Source: Candidatus Micrarchaeota archaeon
GTDB taxonomy: Archaea > Micrarchaeota > Micrarchaeia > Micrarchaeales > Micrarchaeaceae
Reading direction: 5' to 3'
DNA length: 24,000 nt
Assembly (NCBI GenBank): GCA_021827995.1
Contig: JAKATK010000014.1
Span: forward strand, 10,888 to 34,887
The notes under the pieces: generated by a model
What the model saw: only the letters and a program-made list of their open reading frames with translations
The model's database searches: none
What the model was told of the DNA's origin: nothing
Program-made: the position numbers and the translations under genes
Shown: positions 10,635-16,099 of the stretch, piece after piece
Numbering within the stretch: position 1 is the stretch's first letter
Layout of the letters: each line of letters opens with the position of its first letter

Positions 10635-11969
10635 TTGAAGTCTTTTTCAGAGATGTCATTAAAGCCAGAGCTAGCAGAGGCCATAGGCAGGGTCGGGTTC
10701 ACCGCAGCAACTGAGGTGCAGGAGCGTTCCATACCCTCGATACTCCTGGGCAGGGACGTGATAGTCAGGGCCAAGACCGGTACCGGCAAGACCGCGGCGT
10801 TCATAATCCCTATAATGCAGCGCATAACGCACTCGGGTTCAGTGAGCGCAATAATCATAGTGCCCACCAGGGAGCTGGCGCTGCAGGTGGCCGAGTTCTC
10901 CCGCAAGCTGGGCGAGCACATGCGCCTACGCACCACCACGGTCTACGGCGGCGCGTCGATAAACGTGCAGACGAGCGAGCTGGAGCGCGGCACCGACATA
11001 GTCGTCGGCACGCCAGGCAGGATAATAGACCTACTGGACCGCGGCGTACTGAGGCTCGATTCCGTGAAGTTCGTGGTGCTGGACGAGGCGGACCGCATGC
11101 TCGACATGGGCTTCATAGAGGACATAGACTACATACTCTACAAGACGCCGATGAAGAGGCAGACGATGCTCTTCTCGGCCACGATGCCGCAGGAGATAGT
11201 CAAGATAGCAAAGCGACACATGGACCAGGGCGTCGAGACTATACTGGTGGGCGAGGACGACGAGCTCGTGGTCTCGACGATCTCGCACAGCTGCGCATTC
11301 GCCAACGGCAACGCCAAGTTCGCCTCGCTGCTCTGGTACATCGACAAGTTCAAGCCCAAGAAGTGCATAGTATTCTCGCGCACGCAGCGCTGGGCCGAGC
11401 TGATACACGACGTTCTAAGGAACAACGGCTACAACGCCGTGCTGCTGCACGGCGGCCTGACGCAAGCGGTGCGGGAGAGGTCCCTGAGCCACTTCAGGCA
11501 TGCCGGCGAGATACTCGTTGCCACTAACATAGCATCGAGGGGTCTCGATATAAACGACGTCACCGACATAGTTAACTTCGATACGCCTGAGACCTCTTAC
11601 GACTACATCCACAGGGTGGGCAGGTCCGCTAGGATGGGCAAGGAGGGCAGGGCGTTCACGATCTTCCGCTTCGACGAAAAGTGGATCAAGGATGACATAG
11701 AGTACGGCGCTAACATAAAGTTCGAGGAGCTCAGGCCAGAGCTCAGCAAGTACCCGAACGTAAGGCCACCAGAGCGCGCCAGGGAGCCGTTCGGTGGTCG
11801 CGGCGGTCCTGGCGGCCAGAGATGGCACAGGGGCAACCAGCAGTACGGCCGCGGGGAGCATCGCGATTACCGTGGGGGAAGGTTCCACCGCGGCGGCCAG
11901 CAGCACGGTCATCAGGGGCAGCACGGTCACCAGCAGTACCACAGACCGCAGGCGCAGGCCCAGGCCTAG
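10635..11969 (+). CDS. DEAD-box ATP-dependent RNA helicase with RGG/QH-rich C-terminal tail
   Basis: Q-motif (F...GFTAATEVQ), AKTGTGKT, PTRELA, TPGR, DEAD, SAT, ARGLD, HRVGRSAR. The TTG 10635 start retains the conserved Q-motif Phe; ATG 10653 is the alternative. Confidence 0.9.
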   Translation: MKSFSEMSLKPELAEAIGRVGFTAATEVQERSIPSILLGRDVIVRAKTGTGKTAAFIIPIMQRITHSGSVSAIIIVPTRELALQVAEFSRKLGEHMRLRTTTVYGGASINVQTSELERGTDIVVGTPGRIIDLLDRGVLRLDSVKFVVLDEADRMLDMGFIEDIDYILYKTPMKRQTMLFSATMPQEIVKIAKRHMDQGVETILVGEDDELVVSTISHSCAFANGNAKFASLLWYIDKFKPKKCIVFSRTQRWAELIHDVLRNNGYNAVLLHGGLTQAVRERSLSHFRHAGEILVATNIASRGLDINDVTDIVNFDTPETSYDYIHRVGRSARMGKEGRAFTIFRFDEKWIKDDIEYGANIKFEELRPELSKYPNVRPPERAREPFGGRGGPGGQRWHRGNQQYGRGEHRDYRGGRFHRGGQQHGHQGQHGHQQYHRPQAQAQA

Positions 11970-11971
11970 AG

Positions 11972-13930
11972 TCAGAGGCCCTTCTCGATCGCGTCCATAA
12001 TCTCGTGGGCTAGGAGCTCCTTCGTGCCGTCTACAAGCTTGGACGAGCCATCACGCATCAGTATGTGGGCGCGGTGCCTCGCCTCGGTGACCTGTGAGGA
12101 GTCGTTCAGCACCATGAGGCCGGCGCCGAGCTCCTTCATCCTGTGCCGGCCTGCTTCTATCATCCCCTTGTCGCTCATCATGTACTCCAGCTTGAAGCCG
12201 GCTATGAACAACTTCGGGAACTCTCTCGCTACCCTCTCTATGATCTTCGGAGTTGGCGTGAGCGACAGGTTCCACTTCCCGGTTGACTTTAGCTTGGTAT
12301 GCAGCTTGCTCTCAGGTTCGAAGTCCAGGACCGCGGCCGCGAATATTGCGGCATCGTATGGGCCAGACCTTAACTCCGAGAGGGTAGCGTCCAGCATCTC
12401 CTCAACCGTATTTGCCGCTATAGATCCCACGTACATCGGAACTGGCACCCTGGCTGGCCCAGTTATTACCTTGATCTCGCAGCCGCGCCTGAAGGCCTCC
12501 CTCGCTATGCTCGCGCCAAGCGCCCCGCTCGAGCTGTTCGATATGTACCTGACAGCGTCAAGGTAGTACCTGGTGGGCCCGGAGAGCAGCAGGATCCTCC
12601 TGCCTCTCAGCCTGCCTACGGCCAACTTCCTGTGCACGCTGTCCGAAACCTCGCGTATGCCAGGTATCTTGGCGATGCCCTCATCGATCCTTGGCGCTAT
12701 CACCATCGCGCCGCGCTTCCGCAGCTCCGCCAGGCTCTCCTTAAGCAGCGGATTGTCGTACAGCTTCATGTTCATGGCCGGCACTACTATCAGCTTGTCA
12801 TTGGGGTTGGCCGCGCACAGCGTCGTCACTGCGGTGTCCGCTATTCCAAGCGCAATCTTCCGTATAGTGTTCAGCGTCGCAGGGTAAACCAGTATTGCGT
12901 CGTAATCGGTGAGGTGCTCAGACATGCCGGTCAGGTGCGTGACCACGCCCCTGCCGGTCGCCCACTCCATGAGCGCTGGGCTGACGCCGAACTTCACAGC
13001 GCCATCGGTCATGAAGCACTCTACGTCGCAGCCGCTCCTACGCAGTTCCCTGGCGAGCCTGGGCGCCATTACGCTCGCGACGCTACCTGACATGCACAAC
13101 GCTACGCGCCTGCCAGCCAGCCAGTCGTTCTTCAGCGTCAGTTCGCCACCGGTCGGGTGCTTAGCGAACAGGCTACTGTAGTCCCCGAAGCCGTTAGTGC
13201 ATGGATTGCCTTCGGTGTAGAGAAGCCTGGACCTGCCAGCATCATCAGCGAGCGCGATTATTGTAGACGAGGTCATCTTCCAGTCGCCTGATCCGTGGAA
13301 GCATATCGAGGCGTGGCCCTTCTGTGATACGTGGTCCGCAGCGATAACCCCGATGCGTTTCAGCGCGTCGTCCAGCGACGCGCCTGGGATGCCAGCCGCG
13401 AGTCTCATGGCCCTCTCACTCCTGAGCGCAGAGCCCTTCCTGATCGCAGCGGTGCCAGCCTTGTAGACCGCGCCCTTCCTATGGACGAAGCTGGTTATGA
13501 CGTGGACACCGGCCTCAAGCTCTGTCTTCTGTACACGGCCTTCCTCGTAAAGCACGTGGAAAGCGGAGCGCTTGTCTGCGACCACGAAGTTGCCGCGCTT
13601 ATAGCCCATAGTGACCTCCTTCACAAGATAGTCGACAGCTGTCTTGGCGTCGTCGAACATGTTGAGCAGGTCGAGCATGAGAAGGCCGCGGCTGCGCCTG
13701 AAGTCGGTATCGATACCGGTGTGCTGGTCAGTGACTGCTACGAACAGGCCGCTCTTGTTAGCACCGATCCAGGTGCCGCCGCTCCTCACGTCAATAGGCG
13801 CATAAATCTCGCGCGCGCCCTTTATCCTGCGCGGCGGGTACTCCAGCGTGTCCGAACGCTCGTACCTGTTGTGCATAGCGACTATCTGGAAGCCGTCGAT
13901 TACCCGGTAGAGCAGCACCAGAGTGCACAT
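11972..13930 (-). CDS. coaBC: Tri-domain fusion: N-terminal TANGO2/NRDE-family domain + phosphopantothenoylcysteine decarboxylase (CoaC) + phosphopantothenate-cysteine ligase (CoaB)
   Basis: Uninterrupted 652-aa ORF. Residues 1 to about 256 (nt 13163-13930) show MC start, AMHNRYE (cf. NRDE), GGTWIG, GLFVAVTD, RSRGLL, RGNFVVAD and TSSTIIALAD, collinear with human TANGO2. Residues about 272-435 (nt 12626-13117) are a flavoprotein fold with VALCMSGSVAS, SEHL and VVPAMN. Residues about 441-652 (nt 11975-12610) carry GPTRYYLDAVRYISNSSSG, AAAVLDF and KLHTKLKS, the CoaB signatures. Confidence 0.85.
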   Translation of the reverse strand: MCTLVLLYRVIDGFQIVAMHNRYERSDTLEYPPRRIKGAREIYAPIDVRSGGTWIGANKSGLFVAVTDQHTGIDTDFRRSRGLLMLDLLNMFDDAKTAVDYLVKEVTMGYKRGNFVVADKRSAFHVLYEEGRVQKTELEAGVHVITSFVHRKGAVYKAGTAAIRKGSALRSERAMRLAAGIPGASLDDALKRIGVIAADHVSQKGHASICFHGSGDWKMTSSTIIALADDAGRSRLLYTEGNPCTNGFGDYSSLFAKHPTGGELTLKNDWLAGRRVALCMSGSVASVMAPRLARELRRSGCDVECFMTDGAVKFGVSPALMEWATGRGVVTHLTGMSEHLTDYDAILVYPATLNTIRKIALGIADTAVTTLCAANPNDKLIVVPAMNMKLYDNPLLKESLAELRKRGAMVIAPRIDEGIAKIPGIREVSDSVHRKLAVGRLRGRRILLLSGPTRYYLDAVRYISNSSSGALGASIAREAFRRGCEIKVITGPARVPVPMYVGSIAANTVEEMLDATLSELRSGPYDAAIFAAAVLDFEPESKLHTKLKSTGKWNLSLTPTPKIIERVAREFPKLFIAGFKLEYMMSDKGMIEAGRHRMKELGAGLMVLNDSSQVTEARHRAHILMRDGSSKLVDGTKELLAHEIMDAIEKGL

Positions 13931-13960
13931 GCACGCACCTACATTCGCTATGGTTTGCTG

Positions 13961-15889
13961 CTAGACAAAATTTAAGCTTGCGCCAGGCATGGAACCGTTG
14001 GGCGGGTATGCTCTAGTGCGTATCCAGTAGAACGTGACACTGCCACCGGAGCTTATGAATAAGCAGAGATACGATGGACCGATGTTAGGTATGTCATTTG
14101 AAGACGTAAGCTGGTTGCCGTAGTTATAATAACCATTGAGGTCTGTCTGGGACTGCCATGAGAGCGTGACTGTTATCGGGTAGCTGTAGGAACTGCCGGA
14201 TACCTGATTCGTGTTGCCGTTTGATATGGTTGGAAACTCTACCCACTGGTGCAGGCCGGAGGTAACGCCGTCAACCCATCCCCACCAACCGGAACAGCAG
14301 CCAGATGGCGTTTGCGTGTTCCAACCCAGCAGCTCGTCATGGCCATCGTATTGCGCCGTACCAGTATAGAAGTACGCGTCTGCCATCAGACCGGCGGGAG
14401 AGAGCCGGGTGGCGTAGTAGAAGAATATAGAGCCGCCGTTGCCAGTCAACGTTAAGCCGTTGTTGATGCTCTCGCCACCGCCATTGGCGCTGTAAGTCCA
14501 ACCTGACGGTACGGAAGAACCAGAGAAATCGGTGTAGACATTGAACACGTTTGCGCCGTTGTCGTACTGCGCGTATCTGGGACTTAGCTGCGGCGCCTCG
14601 CCTGCGATGGGCACGTCGAACTCCGTGCTTAACGGCTCGAACACCATGTATATCGTGTTTCCGGGCGCCGTCTGGGTTTCTCCGTTCGGCAGCTTTACCC
14701 AGAAGATCGCCTGCGACGACGATTGGTTGCTACACGCGGTCTCGGGGCAGCCCTCGAGCCACGAGGCCAGCGGCCCAGACGGGACGCCGTTCGTGAGCGA
14801 GGAGTAGAACCTTATGTTGCCCAGGTCGCCGCTCTCATAAGATGAATACGAAGAGGGGTTGAAAGTGATTTCCTGCTGGAACGTGCCTGATATCGTGCTG
14901 CCAGGATTGAGCGTTATCTGCACGTAAGGCGATGTCACTGTGAGCGTATACACGGCATTGCTCGTGGCACCGGTGAGCGCATTGGTGCCTGTCACCGTGA
15001 TCTGGTAACTGCCCGGCTGCGCCGACGCGGTGGTGTTTATCGATAGGATGCTGTTGCACGTAGGATCAGGCGTGCACGACAACGGGCTGAACGCCTTCGT
15101 TATAGTGGGCGGCGCGGTATCAGATAGCGTCACTACGTTGGCGTTGTTGGATATTGGTGTAGTAATCGTCACCAACGCGTTGGTCGACTGGCCTGCCGCG
15201 ATCGTGTTGCTGGTAGGGCTCACCGATACGGTGAAGCTGAACTGCCGCGCCGGTGGCGGTGCTGGCGGAGGCGAGGAAGATCCGGAACCTCCGCCGAAAT
15301 AGCCGCCGAACGATGCGCTGTTGGTACCCGCCTCCTTCGCCGTTATCGTAGCAACCTTCGAGTATGCCGTCGGGGCCGAGCACGGGCTCAGGCAGTAGCC
15401 CAGCCAGACGTAACCCGCGAACGGCGTCCCTATCGGAGCGTTCGCAGGTATCTGGCCGTACGCGAACTTGCTGGCGTTGAAGTCTGCGCCGACCGTTTGG
15501 CCCGGAAGTAGGTTGCCTATGAAGAGCGCCTTTGAAAGGTCGTTGGCCGTGAAGTTCTGCGGTACGCCCATACTGTTTAGCGGTTCGCCATCCGCGGCCA
15601 TGAACATAAAGGAATCGAAGTATTCCCTGCCCGTCGTCTGGCCGAATGTTATGCCTATACCGTTGGCGGTGTATACCAGGCTCTTGCAGACGAAGCCTGC
15701 TTGGGCGATGCAGGCCTGCGGTGCCAGGTTCGAGCCGTTGAAGACGCCGAGTTCGAAGAGCGCAGCTAGCACTACTGCTATGATCAGTATGGCCCATCCG
15801 TAGGTCATCAAGTACTCCATGGCTGACTGTGCTTTACTCCCGATCTTTTTGGCGATGGTACGCTGCGACTGCATGTGAATACTAACCAT
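13961..15889 (-). CDS. Large secreted/surface protein with archaeal class III (prepilin-type) signal peptide, beta-sandwich, DUF2341-like and lectin-like domains
   Basis: N-terminus ...KKIGSKA/QSAMEYLMTYGWAILIIAVVLAALF carries the Q-x-x-x-E-Y-L plus hydrophobic helix motif. It is followed by the Pro-rich linker GSGSSSPPPAPPPA, an S/T/N-rich beta-sandwich (GSYQITVTGT...YTLTVT), a DUF2341-like segment (GNIRFYSS...ASWLEGC...AIFWVKLPNG...IYMVF) and a W/G/Y-rich C-terminal lectin-like region. ATG 15874 (MQSQR...) is an alternative, possibly leaderless, start behind the TATA-like TTTAAATT at about 15897-15904. Confidence 0.75.
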   Translation of the reverse strand: MVSIHMQSQRTIAKKIGSKAQSAMEYLMTYGWAILIIAVVLAALFELGVFNGSNLAPQACIAQAGFVCKSLVYTANGIGITFGQTTGREYFDSFMFMAADGEPLNSMGVPQNFTANDLSKALFIGNLLPGQTVGADFNASKFAYGQIPANAPIGTPFAGYVWLGYCLSPCSAPTAYSKVATITAKEAGTNSASFGGYFGGGSGSSSPPPAPPPARQFSFTVSVSPTSNTIAAGQSTNALVTITTPISNNANVVTLSDTAPPTITKAFSPLSCTPDPTCNSILSINTTASAQPGSYQITVTGTNALTGATSNAVYTLTVTSPYVQITLNPGSTISGTFQQEITFNPSSYSSYESGDLGNIRFYSSLTNGVPSGPLASWLEGCPETACSNQSSSQAIFWVKLPNGETQTAPGNTIYMVFEPLSTEFDVPIAGEAPQLSPRYAQYDNGANVFNVYTDFSGSSVPSGWTYSANGGGESINNGLTLTGNGGSIFFYYATRLSPAGLMADAYFYTGTAQYDGHDELLGWNTQTPSGCCSGWWGWVDGVTSGLHQWVEFPTISNGNTNQVSGSSYSYPITVTLSWQSQTDLNGYYNYGNQLTSSNDIPNIGPSYLCLFISSGGSVTFYWIRTRAYPPNGSMPGASLNFV

Positions 15890-16099
15890 GCAAACAATTT
15901 AAACATGACCTTATGCCGGAATTTGTTTTGGCGTCTCACCAGCAACCGCTACGCTCGCGAAAAGGCATAAAAGGCTGTTATCTAGAGCTTATCGCAAGAC
16001 CACACTTCTAGTGGCGCCCCCTACCGTTCCGGTGTTTATCTGCTCTCGATACTATTCAATCGCGCAAGCAGGGAGTTCAGCGCAGTAGACCAATCCACT

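Follow-up and report, generated by a model that had tools for sequence, protein, structure and literature searches.

A recurrent archaeal gene fusion that links a TANGO2-family domain to the coenzyme A biosynthesis enzyme CoaBC

What might a domain of the TANGO2 family be doing at the head of an enzyme of coenzyme A (CoA) biosynthesis? The question is raised by one gene in a 24 000-nucleotide stretch of a Candidatus Micrarchaeota genome, called the window here and used for all coordinates unless stated otherwise. TANGO2 is a human disease gene: its deficiency leads to metabolic crises that threaten life and that vitamin B5 eases. Heme transport, acyl-CoA binding, and N-terminal nucleophile (Ntn) hydrolase activity have all been proposed or disputed for the gene product. 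The gene at window positions 11972–13930 (minus strand) encodes a TANGO2-family domain joined in frame to complete CoaBC. A first-pass annotation, made from the DNA alone, had taken this fusion to connect the TANGO2 family with CoA biosynthesis, and the connection has held: the fusion is recurrent, and it supplies the sole CoaBC in every genome checked. A recurrent fusion that appears to have arisen once provides genomic evidence of the “Rosetta stone” type, from an independent side, that the family is connected with CoA metabolism. Our literature searches found no published description of a TANGO2–CoaBC fusion.

The gene is one uninterrupted open reading frame (ORF) of 652 aa (protein P0001), as first annotated, running from ATG to stop without an internal stop codon, and the motifs then quoted can all be located in its translation (HNRYE at residues 20–24, GTWIG at 52–56, RRSRG at 78–82, PAMN at 384–387, GPTRYY at 451–456, and AAAVLDF at 531–537). 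The Pfam TANGO2 family (PF05742) matches residues 1–147 with 41.4 bits, above its gathering score of 22.6, over profile positions 1–155 of 257, and a weak match to the NCBIfam C45 (Ntn-acyltransferase) model falls inside the TANGO2 region at residues 55–225. Downstream lie Pfam matches to Flavoprotein (PF02441, CoaC; residues 275–415) and DFP (PF04127, CoaB; residues 441–614), and the NCBIfam coaBC model TIGR00521 spans residues 272–648 with 268.7 bits against a cut-off of 219.7, matching positions 2–391 of its 392. From these family models and motifs, residues 272–652 are predicted to form a complete bifunctional CoaBC, in agreement with the earlier call. The parts of the gene, all on the minus strand, are as follows.

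11972..13930, minus strand: complete fused ORF, TANGO2-family domain plus CoaC plus CoaB (translation, Pfam, NCBIfam, Logan contig)
13121..13930, minus strand: TANGO2-family (DUF833) domain of predicted Cys-Ntn fold, residues 1 to ~270 (Pfam, profile match, AlphaFold and Foldseek)
13925..13927, minus strand: Cys2 codon, putative N-terminal nucleophile after Met removal (conservation among homologs)
13859..13873, minus strand: HNRYE, residues 20–24, archaeal form of NRDE, which is N25-R26-D27-E28 in human TANGO2 (alignments; PMC13044924, PMC11867700)
13721..13732, minus strand: TDQH, residues 67–70, with D68 and H70 as the signature of the fused lineage (alignment comparison, mapping onto human TANGO2)
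13685..13699, minus strand: RRSRG, residues 78–82, with R81 aligned to human R88 (alignments; PMC12359130)
13106..13153, minus strand: short linker between the TANGO2 fold and CoaC, ~residues 260–275 (AlphaFold secondary structure, domain boundaries)
12686..13108, minus strand: CoaC flavoprotein domain, predicted phosphopantothenoylcysteine decarboxylase, with PAMN at 12770–12781 (Pfam, TIGR00521, motif position)
11975..12610, minus strand: CoaB domain, predicted phosphopantothenate–cysteine ligase, with GPTRYY at 12563–12580 (Pfam DFP, TIGR00521 to residue 648)
13936..13940, minus strand: AGGTG, a motif resembling a ribosome-binding site, 7 nt 5' of the ATG (sequence read; role presumed)

Modeling extends the TANGO2 assignment past the Pfam match. 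An AlphaFold2 model of residues 1–275, computed from an alignment of 16 fused homologs (A1), has a predicted local distance difference test score (pLDDT) of 85.6 and a predicted template modeling score (pTM) of 0.86. Its best Foldseek matches are the human TANGO2 structures 9BWA and 8SV7 (template modeling score, TM-score, 0.63–0.66 over ~272 columns), and next come CV2077 (3GVZ, C45), acyl-CoA:isopenicillin N acyltransferase, and bile-salt hydrolases, all of them Cys-Ntn enzymes. A hidden Markov model profile of the same 16 homologs retrieves the human TANGO2 crystal structures with E=0.002. On the predicted structure, the TANGO2 fold covers the whole N-terminal ~270 residues rather than the Pfam span of 1–147 alone, and the family membership first proposed from motifs is borne out by the Pfam score, by the profile match to the human structures, and by their place at the top of the structural search.

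A junction of two unrelated genes through misassembly or a frameshift, against which the first-pass annotation had urged a check, can be discarded as vanishingly improbable. Window positions 11400–14600, domain junction included, are matched with zero differences by a Logan contig assembled from a mine-drainage run (X1), and about 38 distinct fused proteins with 42–58% identity come from independent metagenome, Logan, and NCBI samples. Because that contig crosses the junction unchanged and the same architecture recurs in dozens of independent assemblies and in genomes of several phyla, the fusion is not an assembly artefact; the trees of the TANGO2 and CoaBC domains are, moreover, congruent.

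In a scan of GTDB genomes, we found the fused form in Micrarchaeota (FK3.bin83, whose fused protein is the closest relative of P0001), several Bathyarchaeota/Bathyarchaeia, Nitrososphaerales, Thermoprotei, and Ca. Scotarchaeum (Geothermarchaeota). Standalone TANGO2s of ~250 aa turned up in the same scan among Baldrarchaeota, in bacteria (chiefly Planctomycetota), and in Bathyarchaeia, where they form a large clade; among 301 sampled Bathyarchaeia genomes there are 40 with TANGO2, 3 of these 40 having it fused. In the CoaBC tree, all fused proteins, together with three split or frameshifted loci (L022, L056, and L057) discussed below, form one clade with a support of 100 in the Shimodaira–Hasegawa-like approximate likelihood ratio test (SH-aLRT), apart from the ordinary CoaBCs of Bathyarchaeia, Nitrososphaerales, and Micrarchaeota. 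Both the TANGO2 tree and the CoaBC tree pair P0001 with the same Micrarchaeota protein (L010). The single CoaBC clade and the matching pairing point to one origin of the fusion, inherited as a unit and spread horizontally, and the simplest reading that fits the trees is that one fusion event was followed by transfer between archaeal phyla, with replacement of the native coaBC. In the TANGO2 tree, standalone Baldrarchaeota sequences are not separated from the fused forms, which do not resolve as a clade of their own.

Neither the host genome nor five genomes from other archaeal groups contain any CoaBC or TANGO2 besides the fused protein, so the TANGO2 domain would be part of essential CoA biosynthesis in these cells. 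Among the longer proteins of its close relatives, CoaBC is the only fusion partner of TANGO2, and in one Micrarchaeota relative the fused gene adjoins coaD (TIGR01510) and an acyl-CoA dehydrogenase gene; recurrent fusion and adjacency, whose absence would have told against the earlier interpretation, are thus present. That native CoaBC has apparently been replaced in at least five phyla suggests that CoA synthesis truly benefits from the TANGO2 module.

Several further observations from these surveys are worth recording. CoaBC scores over the cut-off in 2 of 31 sampled Micrarchaeota genomes, and the CoaBC step seems to be missing altogether from most sampled members of this DPANN lineage. Two 50%-identity cluster representatives (P0188 and P0249) join TANGO2 to a glycosyl-hydrolase-2 sugar-binding-like domain unrelated to CoA, and a 404-aa protein with TANGO2 and Flavoprotein matches (P0138) is probably a truncated fused form. 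A standalone TANGO2 in a Krumholzibacteriaceae metagenome-assembled genome (MAG; L043) is near-identical to Bathyarchaeia sequences and probably lies on a misbinned archaeal contig.

Conservation within the domain centers on the putative nucleophile. Cys2 is invariant among the 16 fused homologs, all those with a correctly called start beginning Met-Cys, and it is also kept in all standalone archaeal and bacterial TANGO2 loci with correct starts. The start of P0001 would fit removal of Met1 by methionine aminopeptidase, an enzyme of established specificity that is compatible with Met-Cys starts. The first-pass annotation had argued further that an N-terminal position is the only order of domains that leaves Cys2 free; this is sound for activation by Met removal and fails as a general rule, since self-cleavage can also free an internal nucleophile in Ntn enzymes. 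Also invariant among the fused homologs are N21, R22, W54, R79-S80-R81-G82, and the SIC(Y/F)H and GNPC segments. R81 aligns with human TANGO2 R88, which binds phosphate in the crystal (PMC12359130). The pair D68 and H70, at the positions of human N75 and L77, marks the fused lineage, its standalone Baldrarchaeota sisters, and the split locus L022; these positions hold N/E in the large standalone Bathyarchaeia clade, and bacteria have N.

The supply of the CoaBC substrate is a further consideration. The host genome (G000; 1.26 Mb, 88% complete) encodes CoaD (TIGR01510; contig C13, locus L072), and our searches of this 88% complete assembly did not find PPS, PanC, type III PanK, or archaeal DPCK. 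With no PPS, PanC, or type III PanK found (the search for Fumble was uninformative), the host seems to lack the means of making the CoaBC substrate 4'-phosphopantothenate, which suggests that it depends on imported CoA precursors. PPS was likewise found in none of five other genomes with the fused gene (0/5).

Our tentative proposal, which we hold to be possible though short of probable, is that the TANGO2 module is a Cys-Ntn amidase or editor that acts at CoaBC on phospho-pantothenoyl-amide compounds and recycles 4'-phosphopantothenate. As the cell's only CoaBC, P0001 would ligate 4'-phosphopantothenate with cysteine (CoaB) and decarboxylate the product to 4'-phosphopantetheine (CoaC). In bacteria, CoaC domains assemble into dodecamers. 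Removal of the initiator Met would expose Cys2 as N-terminal nucleophile, and the TANGO2 pocket, with the invariant R81 and the conserved N-R-Y loop, would bind a phospho-pantetheine-type ligand. The domain would then cleave the pantothenoyl-amide bond, that is, the bond made by CoaB, in compounds that CoaBC cannot process further; candidates are 4'-phosphopantothenoyl adducts of a wrong amino acid, arising by CoaB mis-ligation, and damaged 4'-phosphopantetheine or CoA. The TANGO2 domain would in this way serve for editing or salvage, since cleavage would return 4'-phosphopantothenate as a substrate of CoaB. The host has a small genome, and our searches of it turned up no gene for 4'-phosphopantothenate synthesis; such a cell would, we propose, have to conserve a scarce imported precursor. 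Hydrolysis of pantetheine or of a cysteine-containing amide, the activity first suggested from the DNA, is a plausible candidate activity. With the fused protein, assays for TANGO2 activity can be run on a defined enzyme and with only a few CoA-pathway compounds as candidate substrates.

Work on human TANGO2 accords with parts of this proposal. Crystal structures have an Ntn fold in which Cys2 is the proposed nucleophile (PMC12359130 and PMC13044924), which backs the fold and nucleophile predicted for the family in the first-pass annotation, and when palmitoyl-CoA was docked on the crystal structure, its pantothenate amide lay ~7 Å from Cys2 (PMC12359130). The NRDE sequence mediates the binding of CoA and acyl-CoA by human TANGO2 (PMC11867700 and PMC13044924). 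Vitamin B5 corrects the defects of TANGO2-deficient flies and human cells (bioRxiv 10.1101/2022.11.04.514597), and a benefit to patients is reported in work cited by PMC11867700 and PMC12359130. A heme role has been proposed (PMC10470608) and later disputed (PMC12782551 and PMC13044924). The vitamin B5 response and the acyl-CoA and heme proposals, which the first-pass annotation had mentioned, are thus on record in the literature. One could extend the proposal to the whole TANGO2 family, as Cys-Ntn amidases that cleave the pantothenoyl amide of phosphopantetheine-containing molecules and that here, fused to CoaBC, recycle 4'-phosphopantothenate; their targets would be damaged or mis-ligated CoA-pathway intermediates, or CoA and acyl-CoA themselves. 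We think this wider version improbable as a whole; if it were true, loss of the activity in humans would explain the vitamin B5 response of TANGO2 deficiency.

Several findings weigh against an amidase or editing role, beginning with the active site itself. The NRDE motif, after which the first-pass annotation had named the domain, is NRY(E/A) in P0001 and in all archaeal TANGO2s, fused or standalone, while the bacterial ones retain NRDE; the label therefore had to be dropped for the fused lineage. Of the proposed catalytic Asn/Asp set of human TANGO2 (N25, D27, N75, and N157), N25 is kept as N21, D27 has become Y23 in all archaeal TANGO2s, and N75 has become D68 in the fused lineage, so the set as such is not conserved. 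D27 and N75 are proposed to be catalytic in human TANGO2 (PMC13044924), and acyl-CoA binding by the human protein needs NRDE (PMC11867700). The alignments present the active-site region of the fused lineage as conserved yet lineage-specific, not canonical, and the changes at D27 and N75 imply that the active site is modified or that the domain may be non-catalytic.

The specific candidate substrates are, besides, our own inference, and to our knowledge no TANGO2 has ever been shown to be catalytically active. The link to precursor supply is weak as well: PPS occurs in 6/40 Bathyarchaeia genomes with TANGO2 vs 74/261 of the others (Fisher p=0.085), so that an association of TANGO2 with PPS absence across Bathyarchaeia is not significant. 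With 73% of the sampled Bathyarchaeia genomes lacking PPS anyway, its lack in the fused-gene genomes is suggestive only.

Broken alleles count on the same side. In two loci (L056 and L057, from Thermoprotei AUK163 and Bathyarchaeia), the TANGO2 part is frameshifted or stopped and CoaBC is intact. L022 speaks for the proposal through adjacency: TANGO2 and a fused-type coaBC lie there side by side as two ORFs, with a frameshift near the junction. The breaks at these three loci may reflect errors of sequencing, or else genuine fission or decay. A deletion allele in the host's own species (L069–L071, and a Logan contig joint) has window positions 12293–15904 (3612 bp) swapped for 156 bp that match a surface-protein paralog at positions 48491–48618 of contig C17 of the host genome. 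The deletion removes the entire upstream surface-protein gene and the first 546 codons of the fused gene, leaving a 122-aa CoaB remnant at the locus, and in one Logan run (X3) this allele outnumbers the intact one. The frameshifts at L056 and L057 and the deletion allele hint that the TANGO2 domain can be done without in places, sequencing errors being possible. Three 122-aa database entries annotated “phosphopantothenoylcysteine synthetase/decarboxylase” (P0123, P0124, and P0127) correspond to the CoaB remnant of the deletion allele.

Three other accounts of the fusion compete with amidase or editing activity. The altered residues lend themselves to a TANGO2 domain that is a non-catalytic, CoA- or acyl-CoA-binding regulator of CoaBC, acting for example in feedback inhibition or in sensing of the CoA pool: D27→Y and N75→D could mean that binding has taken the place of catalysis, such control would act on a fusion that is the sole CoaBC, and human TANGO2 binds CoA and acyl-CoA, with binding abolished by deletion of NRDE (PMC11867700 and PMC13044924). 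Against this stands the invariance of Cys2 in fused, standalone archaeal, and bacterial TANGO2s alike, which would be odd in a pure binder. CoaBC is, furthermore, not the classical control point of CoA synthesis, that being pantothenate kinase. We consider such a regulator doubtful, if worth keeping in view. To processing of acyl-CoA, by a Cys2 thioesterase or acyl transfer for lipid metabolism, with fusion to CoaBC serving only co-expression or co-location, we assign a small chance; it draws on the high Foldseek rank of isopenicillin N acyltransferase, an Ntn enzyme that uses acyl-CoA, on the acyl-CoA dehydrogenase neighbor in one relative, and on the binding of C16/C18 acyl-CoA by human TANGO2 (PMC11867700), but a test cited in PMC11867700 found human TANGO2 negative for acyltransferase activity, and fusion to a CoA-synthesis enzyme instead of lipid genes is then hard to explain.

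The fusion might also be neutral, a TANGO2 domain with an unrelated role in lipid or heme metabolism riding on an essential gene and spreading horizontally with a CoaBC variant. The two MAG loci with frameshifted TANGO2 and intact CoaBC, the same-species deletion allele, and the TANGO2 tree that leaves fused forms unseparated from standalone Baldrarchaeota sequences would all suit this account; yet the domain is intact in at least five phyla, with Cys2 invariant and the lineage-specific residues conserved, and replacement of the native coaBC by the fused lineage suggests a benefit. Neutrality accordingly strikes us as unlikely, and we retain the amidase or editing module as our working proposal.

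The host is probably an ARMAN-like micrarchaeon from acid mine drainage: homologs of its EndA are labelled Micrarchaeota, and the read sets that contain the sequence are mine-drainage metagenomes. The neighborhood of the gene in the window is as follows. The fused gene begins 30 nt past the stop codon of an upstream, co-directional gene (13961–15889, minus strand) for a 642-aa surface protein with a hydrophobic N-terminus, which has no Pfam or NCBIfam match and belongs to a large multicopy paralog family in the host genome (tblastn matches on many contigs, 30–86% identity). Over window positions 14532–15923 the Logan contigs reach a very high depth, which fits paralog segments shared among copies. 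On the other side, a DEAD-box helicase gene (10635–11969, plus strand) lies tail-to-tail with the fused gene, their stop codons 3 nt apart; the helicase has a long, low-complexity C-terminal tail rich in Gly, Arg, and Gln.

Set beside known systems, the N-terminal domain of P0001 is closest to human TANGO2 (8SV7, 9BWA/9N1S) and bacterial TANGO2/HtpA (Shewanella SO0126), with which it has in common PF05742, the predicted fold, and the Met-Cys start, the GTW(I/L)G and RxRG segments being conserved on both sides. Those proteins are standalone, whereas the domain in P0001 is fused to CoaBC; human NRDE is replaced by NRY, and the human N75 position by D68 of the fused lineage, accompanied by H70. 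Bile-salt (choloylglycine) hydrolase, isopenicillin N acyltransferase, and CV2077 have the alpha-beta-beta-alpha Ntn fold and N-terminal Cys nucleophile that are modeled for P0001. Unlike these enzymes, P0001 implies no internal autoprocessing site, its putative nucleophile following Met1 as in TANGO2, and its catalytic Asp and Asn positions are altered. By analogy with these enzymes, of which isopenicillin N acyltransferase is a user of acyl-CoA, the domain in P0001 would act as an amidase on N-acyl amino-acid-like conjugates. Vanin, or pantetheinase, is the known enzyme that cuts the pantetheine amide, and P0001 may resemble it in mode of action only, not in family: vanin belongs to the nitrilase superfamily, with a fold unrelated to the Ntn fold of the TANGO2 domain, for the model of which no nitrilase match appeared among the Foldseek results. 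With bifunctional CoaBC (Dfp) of E. coli and the standalone archaeal enzymes, P0001 shares the domain order CoaC (PAMN)–CoaB and the predicted pathway step; those ordinary CoaBCs carry no N-terminal TANGO2-family domain, and the CoaBC part of P0001 comes from a distinct lineage.

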